64,000 nt of DNA from Escherichia phage vB_EcoP-101114UKE3. The notes under the pieces were generated by a model. The model searched no databases. It had not been told where the DNA came from and was given only the letters and a program-made list of their open reading frames with translations. How positions within the stretch are numbered: position 1 is the first letter of the stretch; each line of letters opens with the position of its first letter. The position numbers were made by a program, and so were the translations under genes. Shown piece by piece: positions 20,308-30,434 of the stretch. The stretch is from sequence record NC_070982.1; one strand, 5' to 3'.

Positions 20308-21342
20308 ATGGCATATGGAATATGGACAAGACCTGTTGGTCCGGGTCCGGCGGCACCTGCTGACATTTACATTGATAGTGGTAGCACGTTTCCTCAACTC
20401 AAGAATAGAGTTAGCGGTAACTTTGCATTTAGTGGAAACATTTGTGACCTCCCTATAAACGGGTGGGATGGAAGTGGTCAAATAGTTATTGTCCCAACAG
20501 GCTCTGTGGTATGGGAAAGATACATACCGCCTAATGTGACCTCTGACGTATACTGGATAAATAACATCTCAGTTATTAATAACTCTACTTTTCGAGTTAC
20601 TATGGATTATAATGTTAATGGGTGGATATTTGATATGGCTTTTAATGTGTATCAGATATGGCCTAGAGCTAATAGAAACTACGGAATTACTTTTTCTAAC
20701 ACAGCTGATTACTTCTCTATTTCTGACTCTGGTACTGTTGGTCAGTGTATCTGGGCTTGGGAAGGTGACATAAACGGCTCTCTTCAGATACCAGATATTG
20801 GAGGTTTTGATATGAGCCGGGCAACTGTTTATGCAAACTGGAGTCACGGAGGGGCTGGGTTGTTATATAACCCGTCTAACAGGGTTGTTTATGTGTACCA
20901 AAACAGGTCTCACGATAACAGTAACACAAACCAAACAGGATATATTGGTGGTGTTAGGATTGCTGTTTTCTGCGATGGTTCTGTGGTACCAACTCACAAC
21001 GGTGGCCTAAATATCTTTTCCCCAAATGGGTCTCAGTGCGTATTCTCTACCTACAGAACCCCTTTTAGTGTTGAGGGGTTTATGCCTATGAGTGGAGGTA
21101 ATACATCTCTGGCCTATCCAATGATACCACTGTCTTATGGGGCTGGGGCTATACGAGGAAGTGCTAGTGGTTGGTACTTTCAACACACAAGATCTCATAT
21201 GATGAATGGATCTTCTTTTGGGACAGGGTATGGAAGAATGATATACTCTTGGTCAAATCAGTATGATCTCGGTGGTGGGGGTGCTCTAGGATTAAGTATT
21301 CCGGTATTAGACGCCAAGAAGATTTTTAGAAGCATACAATAA
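20308..21342 (+). CDS. Virion structural protein (344 aa)
   Basis: ORF tightly packed within the tail module. Confidence 0.5.
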   Translation: MAYGIWTRPVGPGPAAPADIYIDSGSTFPQLKNRVSGNFAFSGNICDLPINGWDGSGQIVIVPTGSVVWERYIPPNVTSDVYWINNISVINNSTFRVTMDYNVNGWIFDMAFNVYQIWPRANRNYGITFSNTADYFSISDSGTVGQCIWAWEGDINGSLQIPDIGGFDMSRATVYANWSHGGAGLLYNPSNRVVYVYQNRSHDNSNTNQTGYIGGVRIAVFCDGSVVPTHNGGLNIFSPNGSQCVFSTYRTPFSVEGFMPMSGGNTSLAYPMIPLSYGAGAIRGSASGWYFQHTRSHMMNGSSFGTGYGRMIYSWSNQYDLGGGGALGLSIPVLDAKKIFRSIQ

Positions 21343-21351
21343 GGAGAGGAT

Positions 21352-22149
21352 ATGGATAGGATTTTAGGAGTTTCAGAACTAGACCCACTGGTTCAACAAG
21401 CTGCTAAGAAGTATGGTATTCCTGCTGCTCTTGTTCATGCGGTGATTCAGAGGGAGTCTAGTGGTAAACCCTCTGCCGCTTCAGGAACAGGGCCAGTAGG
21501 ATTGATGCAGATTAGTAAAGGCTTGGCTAAAGATTATGGATATAAACTTGAAGATAGGTTAGACCCTGCAAAGAATATTGACATGGGTGCTAGATATTTA
21601 AGAGATAACCTGAAAGCTTTTGACGGCGATGTGAGGAAGGCTTTGGTGGGGTATTCAGAAGGGACTGGTGGTGCTAAGCAAATGTTTGCTGGTAAGAAAG
21701 GGTTTACACCTCAAGCTTTAGATTCAATGAATAATAAGCTGTTCCTACCATTCTTTGATAAGAACACAGCAGCGGCACAAGTGGCTAATCCTGTAGGTGC
21801 TTTGAAAGCAGTACAGCCTGTGGACCAGTTTGATTCTAATACGCTGACTAGAGAAGGTGCTGCAAATGCTCCCACTCAAGCAGAGATGGCTGCAAGCAAG
21901 GCTGGGGCTTTGGGTGGTCGTCCTGTAGAGTTTTACTCTGATGAACAACAGTCTGGAGAAGATCAAAAACCTCAACAGAACTTTGGTAATGCTGTGTTGG
22001 CAGCTGCTTCTATGCTTGCAGGAAAACAGCCTAACTCTCAAACTGTACAGAGAGCACACGCCCCTACTCAAGCAGGTTCTCGATATAGTCCACAAACACA
22101 AGCTGTGCTGAGACGTCTGTCTAGCATAGGTACTGACATTTACAGATAA
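21352..22149 (+). CDS. Lytic transglycosylase (SLT domain) virion protein (265 aa)
   Basis: N-terminal motif VHAVIQRESSGKPSAASGTGPVGLMQIS resembles the SLT catalytic region; RBS AAGGAGAGG. Confidence 0.65.
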   Translation: MDRILGVSELDPLVQQAAKKYGIPAALVHAVIQRESSGKPSAASGTGPVGLMQISKGLAKDYGYKLEDRLDPAKNIDMGARYLRDNLKAFDGDVRKALVGYSEGTGGAKQMFAGKKGFTPQALDSMNNKLFLPFFDKNTAAAQVANPVGALKAVQPVDQFDSNTLTREGAANAPTQAEMAASKAGALGGRPVEFYSDEQQSGEDQKPQQNFGNAVLAAASMLAGKQPNSQTVQRAHAPTQAGSRYSPQTQAVLRRLSSIGTDIYR

Positions 22150-22158
22150 GGAGGACTT

Positions 22159-23211
22159 ATGTCTCTTTTCGGTTCTGCTCCTAAATCTAAGACTACGGTA
22201 GCTCCGTCTTCTCAGGTTGATGCTCTTCTGAAACAGATTGTAGCAAATGCTCAGGCTATGAATCAAAACGATCAAGGTTTTATTAATCGTAACATAGCAG
22301 GTTTTAATGAAAATCAAACAGCAGCTCTTTCTAATTTAGCAAATTCTAACACACTCAACCAACTCAGTCAGATGTACACCCCTAGAACTCAACAAGGGTT
22401 GGACCAGATGAATGAGTTGGCTCAGAAATATCAAAACCTAGTTAATAAGGGTGGTATCTCCGCTCAAGATGTTAATAATTTTAGCTCTGGACTGAATAAC
22501 TCTGCACTAGCTAAGTCTACAGGTAAAGCTGCTGCTAATATATCTCTTGGTAATGGCTCTGATTCAGGTTCTCTGAGACGTGCTGCTGCTCAAGGTGCTG
22601 CTCTCTCTTCAGCGAATACAAATCTTTCTCGTTCTATTCAAGGTAAGAATATGGGTGTTAACACTCTTCTGAATAACAACTCCTATCAGCAAGGTTTGCT
22701 CAATGCTCAGTCTGGTTTAGCAAATCAGAACCTGAATCTAGGAGCTGCTGGGGTACAAGCTGGTCAACAGGCAATACATAATCAGCTCACTGCCGGGAAT
22801 CTTCAACAGCAGCAAGATCAACTCCAAGCTAACAACAATTGGGAGAATGCTATTGGCAATCAGCAGTATGGTTGGAATCAGCTTAACAATCAGCTTAATG
22901 TATTAAACTCAGTAAGTCCAATGGCTGGGTACACTATTACTAATAGAGGTGCTGCCCCTAATGCTTCACAACAAATCCTTGGTGCTGGGGTTACTGGTCT
23001 TGGTATTGCTGGTCGTCTAGGTGCTTTTACCCCTAACCAGCAAACTACTAATGCTTGGAATTCGTACAATGCTTCTGGAGGTCAAGCTGGGATGGCTGGT
23101 CCTATGATTGGTGGCTCAAACCTGTCTCAACAGAACGGTCAGAGCAACTGGTTATCTACCGCAGGGAGTAATATCTTAGGTGGTGTTCTAGGAGCCTTTG
23201 GAGCAAATTAA
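22159..23211 (+). CDS. Q/N/G-rich low-complexity virion protein, internal or ejection-type candidate (350 aa)
   Basis: Paralogous to the next gene; RBS AAGGAGG. Confidence 0.5.
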   Translation: MSLFGSAPKSKTTVAPSSQVDALLKQIVANAQAMNQNDQGFINRNIAGFNENQTAALSNLANSNTLNQLSQMYTPRTQQGLDQMNELAQKYQNLVNKGGISAQDVNNFSSGLNNSALAKSTGKAAANISLGNGSDSGSLRRAAAQGAALSSANTNLSRSIQGKNMGVNTLLNNNSYQQGLLNAQSGLANQNLNLGAAGVQAGQQAIHNQLTAGNLQQQQDQLQANNNWENAIGNQQYGWNQLNNQLNVLNSVSPMAGYTITNRGAAPNASQQILGAGVTGLGIAGRLGAFTPNQQTTNAWNSYNASGGQAGMAGPMIGGSNLSQQNGQSNWLSTAGSNILGGVLGAFGAN

Positions 23212-23220
23212 GGAGGAGCT

Positions 23221-24189
23221 ATGGCTTTATTTGGTGGTGGGAGTAGCAAGACTACTTCTAAAATGACAAGACCTGACTACATTCAATCCTATATTGATCA
23301 GTTGGTCAATCAGGTTAATAACACTAGTTCAGGCGATTATGTGTATCGAGAAAATGTTGGACTTAATCAAAACCAGCAAGAAGCTCTGAATAATCTATCA
23401 CAATCTGGTGCATTAGGTGCACTTTCTTCTCAGTATATGGATGCTGCTCAATCTGGCTTAGGTTATCTAGATAATGCATACTCTGGATATAACAACCTGT
23501 CTAACTCTGGTCAAATCACTGGGGAACAGATTGGTGCTCTTGCAGGCCAGCTCTATGACGATGAGGCTGTGCAAGCAGCTATTGCAGCGAATAATGAACA
23601 AACCCAACAGAGTTTGGCTAGGAATGCACTTCCTCAAATCTCTCAGCAGTTTGCTGGTCAGCAAGGTTCTGGTGCACGTATGGCTAAATCTTTTGCTCAG
23701 GGTGATGCTCTGAACCAGATGCAGAACACAGCAACTAATATTACTAATAGTGCCTATGACTCCGCTCTAACTCAAGCACAGAACATTCTTTCTGGTAATA
23801 GACAAACACAAGCATCTGCTTTAGGTGGTTTATCTAACATTGGCTCCAATCTTGCTAATCTAGGAAACCAAGCTGGTCAGTTATCACAACAGCAAATGAT
23901 GAATCAGTGGAATGCAGGACTGCAACAGCAGCAACAACAGCAGTCTGATTTGAACAATGCTTATGAGAATGCTCAGAATGCTGCTAATTGGGGTTGGCAG
24001 GATATTAACAATCAACTAGGTGCTGCCGGGGTTCTTAATGGAGCTTTAGGGACAACCACAACTACTAAAACATCTGGTGGTAGTGGAGGCTTCCTAGGTG
24101 GTGCTGCGAGTGGTGCTGCTGCTGGTTCAGCTTTTGGCCCTTGGGGTGCTTTAGCTGGCGGTGTTATCGGTGGATTAGCTAGCTCTTAA
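23221..24189 (+). CDS. Q/N/G-rich low-complexity virion protein, paralog of 22159..23211 (322 aa)
   Basis: Similar N-terminus (M-x-LFG) and shared NQ-rich blocks; RBS AAGGAGG. Confidence 0.5.
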   Translation: MALFGGGSSKTTSKMTRPDYIQSYIDQLVNQVNNTSSGDYVYRENVGLNQNQQEALNNLSQSGALGALSSQYMDAAQSGLGYLDNAYSGYNNLSNSGQITGEQIGALAGQLYDDEAVQAAIAANNEQTQQSLARNALPQISQQFAGQQGSGARMAKSFAQGDALNQMQNTATNITNSAYDSALTQAQNILSGNRQTQASALGGLSNIGSNLANLGNQAGQLSQQQMMNQWNAGLQQQQQQQSDLNNAYENAQNAANWGWQDINNQLGAAGVLNGALGTTTTTKTSGGSGGFLGGAASGAAAGSAFGPWGALAGGVIGGLASS

Positions 24190-24203: not shown

Positions 24204-25871
24204 ATGCAACAAACTTCTTATGCGTATCTTCGCAGTCAAGACCCAAGAAATCAGATTTATGGTGTTAAACAAGGGGCCGCTTCGGCCTCTCCATACATGG
24301 CAAGACCTGCTTATCCAGCTGCTGATGTTTCTATGTATAACCGGAGACCTCCTGCTTCTCCTGTAGGTTTGTCTTCTCTTGTTGCCAATGCTCAAGAAGA
24401 CCAAGAAGCTATGTTAAATCCGGGATTTAGACAGCGCCTTATGGAAGCAGAGAATCAAGGAACTCCTACAAGCCTTCAGGGTATTGATATTGGTGAACCA
24501 GCTCCTGCTATGAATAACCCAGATCTATCCTCTGATGAGGGTCTACAAGCTGCTGGGTTGATGCCTAGTGACCCACTTCCTGTTACTCCTCCTCGTAAAC
24601 CTCTGGAAGAAACAGATAAAGAGTTCTCTCCAGTTCAGGTGGAACAGGCTCAGAATGTTATTAACACTTTAGCTAATAGTAATCCAGCTCCTGAAGGTAT
24701 GGCTGGTGCAACTCGTGCTAAAGATCAAGAACGTATTAATAATGATATTATGGAAGTAGCTAAAGCTAAAGACCCAGCACAAGCTTGGAATGAGCTTCAG
24801 AAGCAACCGTTCTATCAGAAGTCTAGTTTCTACACTGGCTTAATGGGTGTTGGTCTTTCTATCATGTCAGGTAAATCCCCTATTGAAGCTTTCCAGATTG
24901 GTTCTGGCTTAGCTGCTCAGGATGAAACTAAACAACAACTAGAAGCCAATCGCGATGCTCTGTTAGAACAAGGCTACTCTCAAGATTCAGTTGCTGCTGC
25001 AATTGCTTCGGGAGATCCTTCTCTTCTCAAGATGCGTCAGATGAGTCCTCAGGAGAAAATGGCTCTTGCTGCTCAGGATGAAGAACGTGCCAATCGTGAG
25101 TGGGATAGACGTCAACAGATTCAAGAGAATTCGATGCGGGAACGTGCTGCTGAAACTCGTCGTGCTGCTGAAGAACGTGCTAATGCTCAGTTCGAGAAAC
25201 AGAAAGAACTTATTGGATATCGTGATCAAGTTAAAGCAGAGCGTGCAGAGAAAGCTGCTCAGAGCTTTACTTTCAACCCTAAAGAAGTTCGTCTGGCTCA
25301 GAATACAGCAGAAGGTACTGTTGCTAAACAGTGGGCAGAAAAAGCAGGTCTGTTTAATCAGTCTCACAAAGACTTGGATTTAGCTGACAAAGCTATTAAA
25401 GATAAGGATTATCAAACTGCTCGTTCTGCTTACATGCAGGCTATCATGAACTCCGCAAGGGCAGAAATTGGTGCTAACCGCTCTCTCCAAGCTGATGACT
25501 TGGCTCACTTTGCAGAAGACCCGTCAATCTTTGTTAAGGTTGGTAATACTTGGTCCCTTAAAGCAGGCTATCGTCCTTCTGATGCTGCTCTGTCATATGC
25601 TCGTAAGCAGGCAACTGTTGGTGCTACTTCCGCTGAGAAAGGTGTGAAGGATGCTAAGAAAGCAACAATTGAGGCATATATCGGTTCTGGTATGGATAAG
25701 AAACGAGCGACAGCTCTTGTCAACCGTGCTATTCCTTCTGCTGGTTTCTATGACCCATTCGGTACGTTTGAGAGTGAAGCTGAAGCAGCTGTTGGTGGAG
25801 ATGCTACAAATCCTCGATTAACAGGTGCTCTTTCTTCTTCAGCGGCAGATACGAGTTGGATGTTCCAGTAA
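24204..25871 (+). CDS. Internal virion protein candidate with a central hydrophobic segment (555 aa)
   Basis: Coiled-coil and charged regions with one transmembrane-like stretch; RBS AGGAGA. Confidence 0.5.
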   Translation: MQQTSYAYLRSQDPRNQIYGVKQGAASASPYMARPAYPAADVSMYNRRPPASPVGLSSLVANAQEDQEAMLNPGFRQRLMEAENQGTPTSLQGIDIGEPAPAMNNPDLSSDEGLQAAGLMPSDPLPVTPPRKPLEETDKEFSPVQVEQAQNVINTLANSNPAPEGMAGATRAKDQERINNDIMEVAKAKDPAQAWNELQKQPFYQKSSFYTGLMGVGLSIMSGKSPIEAFQIGSGLAAQDETKQQLEANRDALLEQGYSQDSVAAAIASGDPSLLKMRQMSPQEKMALAAQDEERANREWDRRQQIQENSMRERAAETRRAAEERANAQFEKQKELIGYRDQVKAERAEKAAQSFTFNPKEVRLAQNTAEGTVAKQWAEKAGLFNQSHKDLDLADKAIKDKDYQTARSAYMQAIMNSARAEIGANRSLQADDLAHFAEDPSIFVKVGNTWSLKAGYRPSDAALSYARKQATVGATSAEKGVKDAKKATIEAYIGSGMDKKRATALVNRAIPSAGFYDPFGTFESEAEAAVGGDATNPRLTGALSSSAADTSWMFQ

Positions 25872-25941: not shown

Positions 25942-28900
25942 ATGGCTAATTTAAAATCGTGGGAAGAAGCTTCCAAAGCTCCTGCGTATCTGAACGCCTC
26001 TCCAGAGCAACAGGCTCAAATGAGAGAACAATACAAGGCAGCAGGGGGCACTATTCCTGAGACTCAACCACAAGAGCAACCACAACAAGAAGAACGAGGT
26101 GCTATTGGGGAGTTTGCTCAAGGTGTGTCTAACGCTCTTCAATCAGGTGGTGCTAACATTGCAGCTAGTGCTGCTAAAGGTTTAGGTGGGCTGGTAGAGA
26201 TTGGTGAAAACTTAACTGGTTCGGAAACAAGCTATGGTAAGCGCATTCAAGAGAACTCTAAACAGTTGCTGGAAGAACGCTTATCTAAGATAGAAGATGG
26301 TTTTGGTAAAACAGCTGGTCAGTATGCTGGTGTTGCTGCTGATATTGGTTTGACAGTTGCAAACCCTGCTGTTGCTGCTGCTGTTATCGCAGCTCGTGAA
26401 ACAGGTCGTGCTTATGCTGATCAAACTCCTAAAGAAGATGAAGATAAATCAGTCTTAGATGCTGCTCTTGTTGGTGGTGCTAACTACGCTGCTCAGAAGA
26501 TCCTTCCGGGCATGACTGGTACAGCTTCTACTACTCTTGGTCGTGTAGGACAAAGCGTAGCCTCTAACGCAGTTGCTGGTGCTAAGGGTGGTGCTATTGT
26601 TGGTGCTGCTGAAGCTCAGAACAAATATGGGGATGACACTACTCTAGCTAACGTATTAGAAGGGGCTATTGAAGAGGGTGCACTCGGTGCTGCTTATGGT
26701 GGGGCGATTGGTGGGGTTCATGGGTTAATAAGCCGTCCTAGCCCTCAAGTGTTTGATCGTACTCCTGAGCATGTTAAGACTGACATTGCTGCTGAAGATG
26801 AGGCTATTCGTAAAGCTGCTAACGCTGATGAACTTCGTGAAGCCTATGCTAAAGCTGAGAATGCTAATGCTGCCTCTGCTTTAAACCTTCTGGATGAAAA
26901 TGGTTTCCGAATCACAGATGCAGTTGCTATGGACTCTCCTGCTGTTCAGCGTATATTAAATACAGACCAAAGTCGTGCAGAGAAAGCTGCTACGGTTCAG
27001 AAAGATAGCTCTAATGTTCCCGGTCTCAATCCTCTCGCTTCTCCTAAGAAGACTCAAGGTAAAGCTTTTGCTGACAATGAGTACAACCAGAAACAAGCTG
27101 TGGCAATGAAAGATGCAATGGCTGACTACACTAAAGATAACACCAAAGCCCTTACTGATGTTCTAGACAACCTAGACCGAGAGTTAGTAGCTCTGAGAGC
27201 AAGTGGTGATTTTACTGGTAGTGCTATTGACATTAAAAACCGTACTCAAGCTGATCGTGATTTTATTGATGCTTATAAAACTTTTTACAGTGAAGCTAAT
27301 CGTTTCAAAGCTCGTGATGGTGAAGACCTAAACAACTTCATTGATAAAGCTACTCAGTTGCAGAAGCTATCTGAAAATGTTTCTCCAGAAATGAAGAAGG
27401 CCATTGGTGGATTAAAGAAACTAAAAGGTATGCCTGAAGGTTTTAACCCTATCCAAGATGCTTTCACTCTGAATAATACAGCTAAGTTCATGAGTAACCA
27501 AGACCGTGGTTGGACCTCTCTGACTGATGACGGTTTTCGTGAAGCTCCGGCTCCTGTGTTAGTTAAGAATCCTCTCGGTGCAGCCAAGTATGTACTTAAC
27601 CGCTTTACTTCCGATCGTGCTCGTGCTCAACGTGAGAAGCAACAGTCAGCTAATAGTGAAGCTATCCGCTCTTTGGCTAGGGCTGATTTAGAAGTACAAC
27701 GAGCTAGGACTCAGGCTGAAGAAGCAAGAGCAAAAATGGAAGAAGAACCAACCACAGAAGACATCAAATTCCGTACTCAAAATGATGCACCTTCCGAACC
27801 GGTTCGTGAGGAGCCTTCTGCTACTACTGTGACGGAAGAAATTCCGTCCTCTCCAGCTCCAACTGAAACACCTCTTACTGCGAGGGATTTGGTTGCTCAA
27901 AGACGTGCTCTCCAACAAGCAGAGCTTAGACGTCAAGAAGCTGAAGCTGCTCAGGCTCAAGAAAGTGCTACACCAGAACCTGAACCACAGCAAGAAGCTC
28001 TTACAGCTAGAGAATTAGTAGCTCAGCGTAGGGCTGTAGCAGAGGCTAAGAAACGTCAAGAGGCAGAAGAAGCAGAACGTGCTAAAGAAGCTCCTGAGGA
28101 AGCCGTAGAAGAGCCTAAAGAGAAACCTGAGCCATTACCTGCTCGTGCTCCTAAAGCTCCTGAGAAGGCTCCTGAGCCTGTTAAACCGTCACTTGGTGTA
28201 GAGCGTCTAGCTTCTATGTCAACTGCTGCTCGTCAAGCAACGAAAGACCGTGCTGATCGATTTGCTCGTTCTTTGTATTCGGCTGCTGCTAAAGCTAAAG
28301 CCACTGCGGAAAATTTCCTTTCTTACAAGGGAGATCCTAAAGAGCTTATGCGTCGTATCCGTCAGGAAGACCAAGCAAACAACACACAGCGTCATGAAGA
28401 GATGGCTAGAAACCAACTAGCTTCACAGCAAGGCATTGCTTCTGCTAAATCTCAACATGTTCGTGCTTCTTTTGCTGATTGGGTGAAAGAACGTGGGTTG
28501 CCTTCTGATATTGCTACTAAGGCTTTACGGGCTGAAGAGAAAGGTTTAGGTGGGAACGTCACAAGTCTAGATTCACTGAAGCGAAGAGCTGAGCGTTTAT
28601 ATCAGAAACAAAGAGATGATGAGTTTGACCGTCTCTATCGAGAGGCTCTGGAAGAGAATAAAGCTTTTGATAAGAGAGATGCTCCTAAACTGGTAGACCA
28701 GAAGAAAGAGCTTCAGGATGAAATTGGTGCGTTGCTTGATGCTGAACCGTTACGTCCTGCTCAGAAAGATGCTATGCGTAGGATTATGGAAGACTTCGTG
28801 GAGAGTAAGTTTAAATCTTCAGAGAAAGCTGGAAGGGTTGAGGCTTTGGAAGTTGGTCAGATGAAGGATGTGTGGGATGGGTTTATTAATACCTATAACC

Positions 28901-30387
28901 GAGAAGTTAACATGTTCAACAAGGCTAACAAGAATTCTCAATACGAAGCAGCAGCTAAACACTTGCAAGCACGTCAAGAACGTCTTGAGACGCTCCGTAA
29001 CAGAGCTAAAGCTCGCAGTGATGCTAAGGCAGCCATGGAGGCTGAGAAGCAGTCCTTGGAGGCTATAGCGGCTCAGAAATCAGAGATAGAGAAGATGTTC
29101 AAAGAATTGCCTGAAAGTGTCAGAGAGGCTCAGGAAGGGCGTACTTTGAAACAGCTTGCTGCTCACCATGATAAGAACTCTCCAGTACCACCAGAGCGTT
29201 TCCGTAGTATCATTGAACGTATTCACAACGCTGAGAGTGATTACCTCGATCGCAAACGTCGTTTGACCGAAGCAGAGGAAGATGCTCGTGAAGCTAAGTG
29301 GAATAGGATGTATGAACAGGCTGAGGAAATGAACCGTAAGTTTGATATCGATGCTAGAGTGAAGAGAGATAAGGCTCTGAAGGAAGCTCAAGAACGAGAG
29401 AATGACTTAATGGCAGTTCAACGTCAGCGTGACGACATTCATAAGCGTTTGGTCAATACTCTGGAAGAGAAGGGAGTTTCTAGAGAAGATGCTGAAGCAT
29501 ATGCTGGGTCTTATATGGATAATCGGTATGCTTTGTTAGAGAAACCAATGACTCCAGTGGAACATCAGAATGCTCGTGCTCGTATCGAATCTGACGTAGA
29601 GAAGTTTGTTAAGAAATACGAAACAGCTACTCCAATCGAAAGAGAGATTGCTAAAGCAACTGGTGATGCAGATGGGAAACCTTCTGACTTAGATGCAGAA
29701 ACATTAAAAGCTATCGAAGATGCTCGTAAAGTTGATTCCGATTTTAAGAAACTCTTAGATGAAGAGAAGGAAATGGAGAAGATTCGTTCAGCTCTACCTG
29801 AAGATGAAAGATCTCAGGCGAACTCTGATATTCTGGAAAGTATTAAGAAACAGGAAGATGATTTTGCTAGCAAAGCAGAGAAAGCTTTTATTGAAGGGAA
29901 GGACTTGCAGGAGTTAGCGAGTGTTGCAGAAGTTCTAGATAGGGTTCATGGTGCAGACAAGGCTGGTAACAACCGTCGATTTGTACGTGCTCTACAGACT
30001 GCTGCCGAGAACAAGAAACGTTATGGGGATAATCCAGTGGCTTGGTTTAGTGCTGATGATTACTCTGCTATTGCGAAACTTGGTGCTGCTTCGGCAGGTG
30101 GTAACAAATCTCGAGCACTTGAGAAAATCTTTGGTTCTACAGCAGAACAAGCTAAAGGGAAACTTTTAGGGCGGGATGATGTAGCTAAGATTAGACGTGT
30201 GATTGAAGCGAATCCCAATGTTAAGATTCCTTCTTACAAGACAACTACTCGACAAGAGTACATGCAGTTCTTGGAGAAGTATAATGACGAGGGAGAGTTG
30301 AAAGTCAAACGTGGTTCTCTGTCTGACAAGTTGGAGAGAGGTAAGCGTCAAGCTAAACTCCGTGTTAGAGTTCGAGCTAAGGAGTAA
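25942..30387 (+). CDS. Giant coiled-coil virion protein, internal or ejection protein or tape-measure-like (1481 aa)
   Basis: A/E/K/R-rich helical repeats; last gene of the plus-strand module; RBS AAGGAGA. Confidence 0.55.
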   Translation: MANLKSWEEASKAPAYLNASPEQQAQMREQYKAAGGTIPETQPQEQPQQEERGAIGEFAQGVSNALQSGGANIAASAAKGLGGLVEIGENLTGSETSYGKRIQENSKQLLEERLSKIEDGFGKTAGQYAGVAADIGLTVANPAVAAAVIAARETGRAYADQTPKEDEDKSVLDAALVGGANYAAQKILPGMTGTASTTLGRVGQSVASNAVAGAKGGAIVGAAEAQNKYGDDTTLANVLEGAIEEGALGAAYGGAIGGVHGLISRPSPQVFDRTPEHVKTDIAAEDEAIRKAANADELREAYAKAENANAASALNLLDENGFRITDAVAMDSPAVQRILNTDQSRAEKAATVQKDSSNVPGLNPLASPKKTQGKAFADNEYNQKQAVAMKDAMADYTKDNTKALTDVLDNLDRELVALRASGDFTGSAIDIKNRTQADRDFIDAYKTFYSEANRFKARDGEDLNNFIDKATQLQKLSENVSPEMKKAIGGLKKLKGMPEGFNPIQDAFTLNNTAKFMSNQDRGWTSLTDDGFREAPAPVLVKNPLGAAKYVLNRFTSDRARAQREKQQSANSEAIRSLARADLEVQRARTQAEEARAKMEEEPTTEDIKFRTQNDAPSEPVREEPSATTVTEEIPSSPAPTETPLTARDLVAQRRALQQAELRRQEAEAAQAQESATPEPEPQQEALTARELVAQRRAVAEAKKRQEAEEAERAKEAPEEAVEEPKEKPEPLPARAPKAPEKAPEPVKPSLGVERLASMSTAARQATKDRADRFARSLYSAAAKAKATAENFLSYKGDPKELMRRIRQEDQANNTQRHEEMARNQLASQQGIASAKSQHVRASFADWVKERGLPSDIATKALRAEEKGLGGNVTSLDSLKRRAERLYQKQRDDEFDRLYREALEENKAFDKRDAPKLVDQKKELQDEIGALLDAEPLRPAQKDAMRRIMEDFVESKFKSSEKAGRVEALEVGQMKDVWDGFINTYNREVNMFNKANKNSQYEAAAKHLQARQERLETLRNRAKARSDAKAAMEAEKQSLEAIAAQKSEIEKMFKELPESVREAQEGRTLKQLAAHHDKNSPVPPERFRSIIERIHNAESDYLDRKRRLTEAEEDAREAKWNRMYEQAEEMNRKFDIDARVKRDKALKEAQERENDLMAVQRQRDDIHKRLVNTLEEKGVSREDAEAYAGSYMDNRYALLEKPMTPVEHQNARARIESDVEKFVKKYETATPIEREIAKATGDADGKPSDLDAETLKAIEDARKVDSDFKKLLDEEKEMEKIRSALPEDERSQANSDILESIKKQEDDFASKAEKAFIEGKDLQELASVAEVLDRVHGADKAGNNRRFVRALQTAAENKKRYGDNPVAWFSADDYSAIAKLGAASAGGNKSRALEKIFGSTAEQAKGKLLGRDDVAKIRRVIEANPNVKIPSYKTTTRQEYMQFLEKYNDEGELKVKRGSLSDKLERGKRQAKLRVRVRAKE

Positions 30388-30396
30388 ACAAGAAAA

Positions 30397-30434
30397 GCCC
30401 CCAACCTGTAAAAAGGAAGGGGGCTTCTTTATTT
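30397..30434. terminator. Bidirectional terminator between the convergent gene blocks
   Basis: GCCCCCAACC...GGAAGGGGGC hairpin flanked by T-rich tracts on both strands. Confidence 0.5.

Follow-up and report, generated by a model that had tools for sequence, protein, structure and literature searches.

Tandem paralogous ejection proteins in a Gordonclarkvirinae podophage and their putative place at the outer membrane

What do two adjacent genes for glutamine- and asparagine-rich proteins contribute to a podophage virion, and are the two proteins related? The question is raised by positions 22,159 to 24,189 of a 64,000-nucleotide stretch of Escherichia phage vB_EcoP-101114UKE3 (NC_070982.1), which was analysed as a whole and is called the window here. 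Gene A (22159..23211, + strand) encodes 350 residues and gene B (23221..24189, +) encodes 322, exactly the adjacent reading frames described in the original prediction. Each has a Shine-Dalgarno sequence, AAGGAGG, that can be read directly from the DNA: that of gene A (22148..22154, +) overlaps the stop codon of the transglycosylase gene, and that of gene B (23210..23216, +) overlaps the stop codon of gene A. The common M-x-LFG start noted earlier is also present, as MSLFG in A (22159..22173, +) and MALFG in B, and alignments of the A and B families retain it throughout both.

The composition of both proteins is strongly biased. A contains N 15.4, A 13.1, G 12.0, Q 12.0, L 10.3 and S 9.4%, and B contains A 14.3, G 13.7, Q 13.7, N 10.9, S 9.9 and L 9.3%; charged residues make up just 7-8% of either. 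Among the 40 open reading frames in the window with 150 aa or more, A (27.4% Q+N) and B (24.5%) rank first and second, against a median of 8.7%. The description of the pair as Q/N/G/A-rich is thus borne out, but the label of low complexity fits only in part, since neither family is featureless: their alignments contain invariant P, W, Y and G columns, and position-specific conservation that includes such columns spans families to ~30% identity. Nor are the proteins built from recurring NQ...AL-x-NL blocks, as had been proposed. No internal repeats were found in A or B (best off-diagonal self-alignments at z=0.9 and z=2.1, respectively), and the NQxxAL-xNL motif is a single homologous position common to both proteins, at residues ~51-62. 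A Pfam search of A and B returned no family even at E<=10, glycine-zipper families included.

A and B are true, ancient tandem paralogues whose kinship far exceeds their shared composition. The pairwise alignment suggested as a check on the pair gives a Smith-Waterman score of 289 against 95+-12 for shuffled sequences (z=15.9; 34% identity over 299 columns), and the signal persists against 25-residue block shuffles (z=12.5). Profile-profile comparison with hhalign places the relationship at 100% probability (E=1.4e-39, 300 columns). Default BLASTP with composition adjustment finds no significant similarity between A and B; this miss is an artefact of the composition correction and is overturned by the shuffle-controlled alignments and the profiles. 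Each protein represents a separate orthologous lineage conserved to ~40% identity; 97 phage records contain A and 99 contain B, two Aeromonas phages making up the difference. The pair is old and has been maintained side by side, as indicated by sequence comparison with a distant prophage-like element (L005), in which genes for an SLT protein, an A-like protein (hhalign E=3e-51), a B-like protein and members of phrog_12130 and phrog_14629 are found.

Experimentally characterised counterparts of both proteins exist in phage SU10. A is the orthologue of SU10 gp21 (77.4% identity) and B that of gp22, annotated as a 'DNA injection/ejection protein' (82.0% identity), with the same lengths of 350 and 322 aa. 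Both match the phrog_4287 'DNA ejection protein' profile (E=4e-102 for A and 4e-99 for B), a family of ~1,070 cluster representatives, and phiEco32 and SU7 are other phages with proteins of this type. The gene order of SU10 is also that of the window, running from nozzle, needle, DUF6453 and SLT through A and B to proteins of ~555 and ~1480 aa. Within Gordonclarkvirinae the window falls into the SU7/Suseptimavirus-like branch (96-100% DNA identity to SU7, 4E8 and 101114BS3), whereas SU10 is a Kuravirus; otherwise we note no substantive difference between them. In SU10, gp21 and gp22 are listed as present in the virion and detected by mass spectrometry (Supplementary Table 1 of PMC9509320), and a separate mass spectrometry study of SU10 virions found gp21 (35.9 kDa) and gp22 (33.3 kDa) at 49-53% peptide coverage (PMC4281155). 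The two proteins reside in the head with the DNA and exit the particle upon release of the tail needle, and gp20-24 are missing from the genome-release intermediate (PMC9509320). Because A and B are orthologous to these experimentally characterised proteins, they can be assigned as ejection proteins, in agreement with the earlier suggestion of an internal or ejection role. Virion presence and ejection of such proteins were previously established for SU10, so that this finding is real but not new.

The same data bear on whether only one gene of the pair could be functional, its neighbour being a duplicate that is redundant or in decay. Single-copy relatives do exist, namely L004 (387 aa) and gp53 of phage LUZ24. 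However, A and B are both intact with strong ribosome-binding sites, gp21 and gp22 are both seen in SU10 virions at the coverage given above, and the two conserved lineages stay distinct and adjacent even in the distant prophage-like element. We regard redundancy as scarcely credible.

After SLT, genes A and B open a conserved cassette that continues with a ~500-aa and a >1000-aa protein. The upstream partner is the SLT lytic transglycosylase (265 aa; 21352..22149, +), orthologue of the SU10 ejection protein gp20. Downstream lie a 555-aa ejection protein (24204..25871, +; SU10 gp23 orthologue, phrog_12130) and a highly charged, helical 1481-aa ejection protein (25942..30387, +; SU10 gp24 orthologue, phrog_14629) whose residues 131-149 form an N-terminal hydrophobic segment. 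The pair had been placed between the transglycosylase and the giant protein; the upstream boundary is correct, but the 555-aa gene separates A and B from the giant protein. Judged on position and size, the 555-aa protein is a candidate periplasmic-tunnel subunit and the 1481-aa protein a candidate inner-membrane/cytoplasmic subunit. In BLASTP comparisons of these two proteins with LUZ24 gp51 and gp50, respectively, no pairwise similarity was found, and the presumed equivalence is one of size and order only.

Distant relatives carry the A/B module in longer proteins. Of 40 longer members, 13 (best E=6e-16; for example P0321, at 37.9 bits and with SDERIK as its putative cleavage site) have it fused to a self-cleaving Peptidase_S74 domain that stands directly after the module, and relatives also fuse it to the cell-wall lytic domains SLT or Hydrolase_2. 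The lytic fusions tie the module functionally to envelope penetration. Domain searches of A and B themselves found neither a Peptidase_S74 domain nor its SDxxxK cleavage motif. The 555-aa protein was also considered as a homologue of the fusion proteins and rejected, as it shares only a 27-residue motif with P0321 (E=0.005) and nothing with P0358. Peptidase_S74 is an intramolecular chaperone that acts on trimers, as in endosialidases, tail fibres and MYRF. A trimerisation-dependent chaperone in these relatives is compatible with a trimeric helical rod no less than with a pore of 6- to 9-fold symmetry.

Both proteins are predicted to be all-alpha, with helices over residues ~18-270. The longest predicted helices span residues 176-252 in A and residues 150-202 and 218-272 in B, and B shows amphipathic helical periodicity (z=3.7). 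AlphaFold2 monomer models built from the family alignments reach a pLDDT of 41.4 and 41.7 and are unusable past 'all-helical'; a Foldseek search of the PDB with the B model (pLDDT ~41) gave no hits at E<=0.001 and TM values of at most 0.21. Searches of PDB sequences with single sequences and profiles of A and B found nothing significant, and the weak matches, to coronavirus HR1 coiled coils (E=0.015-0.045) and to a 'lysozyme' chain (5i8l_A, E=0.0068), were set aside as similarity at the level of composition.

The C-termini contain Gly-rich hydrophobic segments. Residues 273-291 of A, ILGAGVTGLGIAGRLGAFT (22975..23031, +), form a Gly/Ala-rich, glycine-zipper-like hydrophobic stretch with R286 as the single charged residue and a Kyte-Doolittle mean of 1.29 over a 19-residue window. 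A second C-terminal Gly-rich hydrophobic segment lies at residues 331-349, WLSTAGSNILGGVLGAFGA (23149..23205, +; mean 1.03). In B, residues 286-322, GGSGGFLGGAASGAAAGSAFGPWGALAGGVIGGLASS (24076..24186, +), form an uncharged glycine zipper, and the last 60 residues contain 10 GxxxG motifs. With Kyte-Doolittle window means of 1.0-1.3, the hydrophobic segments of A and B are weak for classical transmembrane helices.

These features bear on the earlier idea of a gel-like core. On that view A and B would do their main work within the capsid, where a Q/N-rich core resembling a gel or scaffold would order the DNA or put it under pressure, and they would be ejected only incidentally. Extreme Q+N content (27% and 25%) with few charges, the low-confidence monomer models and the SU10 reconstruction, which has no resolved or ordered internal density attributable to ejection proteins (PMC9509320), are consistent with it. 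Disordered gel formers, however, are not expected to show the position-specific conservation with invariant W, P, Y and G described above, nor the consistent helix prediction and conserved terminal glycine zipper seen here; the fusion of relatives to lytic enzymes and the position kept in an ejectosome-type cassette also argue against a core function. Nothing found here supports a gel, and we consider a chiefly intracapsid role very improbable. The (near-)invariant columns, the predicted helices and the lack of repeats do not fit a classification as disordered, prion-like or gel-forming Q/N-rich proteins.

The motif in the glycine zipper of B recurs in two other phage proteins, at the C-terminus of P22 gp7 and in LUZ24 gp53. 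B and gp7 have in common a PWGAxxGGxIG (PWGAxxGGxIGxL) motif (hhalign probability 81.5%, E=1.1e-5, 33 columns, 52% identity), to which A is a weak match. Outside these last 33 residues the similarity is marginal, with Smith-Waterman comparisons over the protein body giving z=3.8-4.6 against global shuffles and 2.4-2.7 against block shuffles. The gp7 family PF25688 has no match in A or B at E<=10, and gp7 itself matches phrog_598, not phrog_4287. The literature search found nothing that joins 'glycine zipper' with 'ejection protein'.

The relationship to LUZ24 gp53 extends further. The B family aligns with gp53 over 196 columns (hhalign probability 96.5%, E=8e-10; hmmsearch E=4e-12), and B itself scores z=11.3 against it in Smith-Waterman comparison. 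LUZ24 gp53 is of the phrog_7477 type. Against phrog_4287 it scores 2e-10, and two intermediates, P0094 and P0095, match both PHROGs. Sequence comparison thus makes the phrog_4287 family homologous to gp53, with A connected solely via B (direct A-gp53 z=1.35). From genus, length and position we infer that gp53 is the orthologue of gp56 of phage Pa223, a virion component by mass spectrometry whose gene precedes those for a tunnel protein of 505 aa and a protein of ~1000 aa (bioRxiv 10.1101/2025.06.11.659172). Pa223 gp56 (313 aa) has been proposed on bioinformatic grounds to be an outer-membrane channel, with predicted C-terminal transmembrane helices and an AlphaFold3 nonamer (bioRxiv 10.1101/2025.06.11.659172). 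A channel role of A and B, also raised in the original prediction, is plausible through this homology to a proposed channel and through the C-terminal glycine zippers.

A different geometry has to be weighed here, in which the ejected A and B become part of the periplasmic conduit and lengthen the nozzle as a soluble, perhaps trimeric, helical rod or tube, with the Gly-rich C-termini acting as subunit-packing zippers instead of membrane anchors. The long predicted helices of both proteins, the amphipathic periodicity of B, the Peptidase_S74 chaperone domain behind the module in relatives and the only moderate hydrophobicity of the C-terminal segments all suit such a rod. The cassette, however, already holds a tunnel-sized 555-aa protein and the 1481-aa protein, the predictions for the Pa223 homologue include transmembrane helices and give a channel only in the nonamer, and the motif has its closest counterpart at the C-terminus of P22 gp7, the gp14-like outer-membrane factor. 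On balance we hold a periplasmic rod to be unlikely, though it deserves consideration.

We instead favour, as the probable reading, that A and B are ejection (pilot) proteins of the SU10 gp21/gp22 type that make up the outer-membrane end of the delivery channel of a Gordonclarkvirinae podophage. They would be membrane-inserting, outer-membrane-proximal ejectosome subunits, possibly in a heteromer. In the proposed mechanism, once the nozzle has formed and the needle is gone, A and B would leave first, in extended form, and would refold at the nozzle tip into long helical hairpins or bundles. Their C-terminal glycine zippers would then enter the outer membrane and give rise to a proximal ring or pore, maybe as an A/B heteromer. 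The transglycosylase would cut the peptidoglycan, and the 555-aa and 1481-aa proteins would prolong the pore over the periplasm and the inner membrane.

A broader and more tentative proposal, which we put forward as a possibility, is that the A/B module is the Gordonclarkvirinae form of a widespread outer-membrane-penetrating module of the gp7/gp14 class, with the ~1,070 cluster representatives given above. In other podophages this module may be part of a self-cleaving polyprotein composed of the module, a Peptidase_S74 autoprotease, a cell-wall hydrolase and a tunnel-like region, while here tandem duplication may have produced an outer-membrane ring of A+B, the first heteromeric one in a phage ejectosome. 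If true, this would unite P22 gp7, Bruynoghevirus gp56 and SU10 gp21/gp22 in one superfamily; at the least, there is a hint of kinship among the small ejection proteins of several podophage groups. No part of a short-tailed phage is less well understood than its ejection proteins, Kuravirus-like phages feature in phage-therapy collections, and SU10 gp21 and gp22 have so far been labelled merely 'ejection protein'. The paralogy, the Bruynoghevirus homology, the P22 gp7 zipper motif and the polyprotein relatives with Peptidase_S74 and lytic domains turn these labels into testable assignments within the SU10 ejectosome.

Comparison with T7 places the pair by position and not by sequence. T7 gp14 forms the pore of the T7 ejectosome in the outer membrane, and A and B correspond to it in being the first and smallest of an ejection-gene cluster, followed by tunnel-sized and giant proteins (framework of PMC8954989). 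T7 gp14 is ejected from the virion as well, but A and B have no sequence similarity to it (hhalign probability 0.06%; Smith-Waterman z ~0). It has 196 aa, is 20% charged and lacks a glycine zipper, and its size class is 180-240 aa against 322 and 350 aa here, A and B being 1.5-1.8 times the size of gp14/gp7-class proteins. The T7 ejection proteins also form an ordered core stack, whereas none are resolved in the SU10 reconstruction.

P22 gp7 (PF25688, phrog_598), a gp14-like outer-membrane factor and ejected virion protein (PMC8954989), comes closer in character. Its Q/N/G/A/S/L content is 68.5% against 72% in A/B, it shows two C-terminal hydrophobic Gly-zipper peaks (1.31/1.03 against 1.29/1.03 in A), and it is encoded just upstream of larger ejection proteins, as A and B are. 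It differs in length (229 aa against 322-350 aa), and its N-terminus is known to be processed by OpdA. The Bruynoghevirus proteins gp53/gp56 resemble A and B in size (313 aa), in their Gly-rich uncharged C-terminus and in their place upstream of ~505-aa and >1000-aa ejection proteins. About 200 residues of LUZ24 gp53 are homologous to the B family while its N-terminal third is not alignable, and bruynogheviruses carry a single copy where the window holds a tandem pair.

Genes A (22159-23211) and B (23221-24189) are adjacent + strand ORFs of 350 and 322 aa, as originally predicted, and each is preceded by an AAGGAGG ribosome-binding site that overlaps the stop codon of the preceding gene. N, Q, G, A, S and L make up ~72% of the residues in both proteins, and just 7-8% are charged; their Q+N contents (27.4% in A and 24.5% in B, median 8.7%) are the two highest among the window's 40 ORFs of 150 aa or longer. 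The predicted similarity of the N-termini also holds (MSLFG in A, MALFG in B). The recurring blocks that had been described in both proteins do not behave as internal repeats upon self-alignment (z=0.9 for A, 2.1 for B), and NQxxAL-xNL is a single homologous motif found at an equivalent position in A and B.

Default BLASTP reports no significant match between A and B, which is an artefact of its composition correction. Smith-Waterman alignment of the pair, a check proposed with the original prediction, reveals relatedness beyond composition: the pair scores 289 and 300 shuffles give 95+-12 (z=15.9), with 34% identity across 299 collinear columns, and the signal is kept under 25-residue block shuffles (z=12.5). 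Profiles built from the homologues of each family align over 300 columns (hhalign probability 100%, E=1.4e-39), and both proteins match phrog_4287 'DNA ejection protein' (E ~1e-100). The shuffle-tested alignment, the profile alignment and the common PHROG together indicate that A and B are real paralogues.

The DNA of this region is 96-100% identical to Escherichia phages SU7, 4E8 and 101114BS3 and ~76% identical to phiEco32/SU10-type Kuraviruses (subfamily Gordonclarkvirinae). A and B are equal in length to SU10 gp21 (77.4% identity) and gp22 (82.0% identity), and the gene order is that of SU10: nozzle, needle, DUF6453, lytic transglycosylase (SLT, 21352-22149, +), A, B, ~555 aa and ~1480 aa. 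The SU10 proteins (350 and 322 aa) were detected in virions by MS (Supplementary Table 1, PMC9509320), as also in an earlier proteome (gp21, 35.9 kDa, 53% coverage; gp22, 33.3 kDa, 49% coverage; PMC4281155), and are carried in the head until genome release expels them (PMC9509320). The proposed refutation, absence of the proteins from virions, is contradicted by these data for close orthologues. The SU10 reconstruction has no ordered internal density assignable to its ejection proteins (PMC9509320). A and B are very probably ejection proteins, and the predicted virion or ejection role is correct, yet already published for SU10; our additions are modest and of specialist interest, namely the paralogy, a link to Bruynoghevirus, a motif shared with P22 gp7 and fusions to S74 and lysin domains. 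The gel-like core that was also proposed for these proteins is without support and highly improbable.

Of the phage records, 97 contain A and 99 contain B. The difference is due to two Aeromonas phages (BUCT695, NC_070977.1 64673-65113, is one), which match 45% of B at 35% identity, are annotated 'DNA injection protein' and are the sole B matches in the phage collection beyond E. coli and Shigella phages. A prophage-like element on a 389-kb E. coli contig (GCA_023211535.1, DAHCAP010000002.1, 204317-225285) carries SU10-type capsid, terminase and portal genes together with the whole cassette: SLT, A-like (334 aa; hhalign E=3e-51) and B-like (322 aa) genes, and members of phrog_12130 (498 aa) and phrog_14629 (1113 aa). 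A and B belong to a conserved five-gene cassette, and these comparisons indicate that the pair is older than Gordonclarkvirinae. The element itself points either to a temperate, integrated relative of the Gordonclarkvirinae, which are otherwise virulent, or to a chimeric assembly.

More distant SU10-like contigs have one copy, such as the 387-aa P0047 (locus L004, 9722-10885), whose gene lies upstream of a tail-needle gene and not after an SLT gene. Single-copy members P0047, P0094 and P0095 (387-423 aa) have a C-terminal extension resembling Peptidase_S74, for which the Pfam search gave a sub-threshold match in P0095 (E=0.015, 16 bits) and none in P0047 and P0094. A joint A+B profile retrieves 1,071 cluster representatives (E<=1e-3), 185 of which reach E<=1e-10, from a library of 1.84 billion proteins.

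In nineteen of the 150 best family members, the A/B-like module forms the N-terminus of a protein of 768-1591 aa. P0321 (1153 aa; locus L010, 9834-13295, within an SU10-like tail module) joins the module to a significant Peptidase_S74 intramolecular-chaperone/autoprotease domain (37.9 bits) and then a Hydrolase_2 cell-wall hydrolase, with 'SDERIKEN' immediately after the Gly-rich uncharged C-terminal segment, or glycine zipper, of the module; in P0358 (1309 aa) the module is followed by an SLT domain. Among 40 longer members, 13 have Peptidase_S74, two SLT and two Hydrolase_2; we also note a Hint (intein-like) domain in one long fusion. Some relatives thus produce the module and a lysin as one polyprotein, and these architectures suggest that ejection proteins undergo polyprotein processing, where cleavage would release the module exactly where A and B end. 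The module-lysin fusions tie the module functionally to envelope penetration. Because S74 domains work in trimers (endosialidases, tail fibres, MYRF), a trimeric precursor state for the module is a possibility.

Several observations concern neighbouring genes. The 555-aa protein (24204-25871, +) contains a short motif, FYTGLMGVGLSIMSGKSPIEAFQIGSG (residues 209-235, 24828-24908), that is similar to part of the C-terminal half of P0321 (BLASTP E=0.005 over 27 residues); a comparable segment was seen by eye in P0358, for which BLASTP gave no alignment, and this evidence is too weak to infer homology. The 344-aa DUF6453 protein (20308-21342; labelled 'membrane protein, moron' in PHROG), encoded between the tail needle and the transglycosylase, is the most diverged of this gene module: it shares 61.7% identity with SU10, compared with 75-90% for the neighbouring genes, and its orthologue SU10 gp19 is listed as absent from the virion. 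The 1481-aa ejection protein (25942-30387, +) is helical and 33% charged, with a single strongly hydrophobic N-terminal segment, VAADIGLTVANPAVAAAVI (residues 131-149, 26332-26388; window-averaged mean 1.71), and Gly/Ala-rich segments at residues 205-264 resembling the A/B glycine zippers, which are compatible with membrane insertion. After this gene the + strand late operon ends and - strand genes start, near the cumulative GC skew maximum (~30 kb; about 30000-30400), and SU10 carries an annotated terminator in the corresponding position. No tRNA genes were found within the 64-kb window.

AlphaFold2 with family alignments models both monomers as all-helical at low confidence (pLDDT 41.4 and 41.7), with long helices over residues ~18-270 and mainly coil in the Gly-rich tails, and Foldseek and PDB sequence searches returned nothing meaningful; both outcomes are expected of proteins that adopt their fold only as oligomers once ejected. 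Hydrophobic moments point to amphipathic helices in B (z=3.7), with weak support in A (z=1.5). The main rival reading, a soluble helical conduit or rod, appears unlikely. A and B are a conserved, charge-poor paralogous pair, predicted to be helical and ending in glycine zippers, and we give roughly even weight to their being an outer-membrane-proximal pore. As such a pore, A and B would exit the particle first and refold at the nozzle tip, where their glycine zippers would insert into the outer membrane as the proximal, possibly heteromeric, ring of a trans-envelope channel that the transglycosylase, 555-aa and 1481-aa proteins would then complete.

T7 gp14 has no similarity to A or B. P22 gp7, classed as a gp14-like outer-membrane factor (PMC8954989), shares their unusual composition (Q/N/G/A/S/L 68.5%), their paired C-terminal hydrophobic peaks and a C-terminal motif (PWGAAIGGGIGLLGS in gp7, PWGALAGGVIGGLAS in B). 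Its profile aligns with the B family over just 33 columns (probability 81.5%, E=1e-5), whole-protein similarity is marginal (z=2.4-4.6) and neither Pfam nor PHROG gives a cross-match, and we regard the resemblance as a common terminal motif and a pointer to remote homology rather than as family membership.

Homology of the B family to LUZ24 gp53 is indicated by profile alignment (hhalign probability 96.5%, E=8e-10, 196 columns; hmmsearch E=4e-12), by a gp53 match to phrog_4287 (2e-10), by Smith-Waterman alignment of B (z=11.3 under global and 5.5 under block shuffles) and by the intermediates P0094 and P0095, which match both phrog_4287 and the PHROG of gp53. From genus, length and position we infer that gp53 (313 aa) corresponds to Pa223 gp56, the proposed outer-membrane channel of the Bruynoghevirus ejectosome, a proposal that draws on transmembrane helices predicted near the C-terminus, on a nonameric channel modelled with AlphaFold3 and on MS of virions (2025 preprint, bioRxiv 10.1101/2025.06.11.659172). 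Pairwise comparison of the 555-aa and 1481-aa proteins with their LUZ24 counterparts gave no similarity. The Pa223 gp56 gene adjoins those of a 505-aa periplasmic-tunnel protein and a ~1000-aa gp16-like protein (bioRxiv 10.1101/2025.06.11.659172), a size series paralleled here by A/B, then 555 aa, then 1481 aa.
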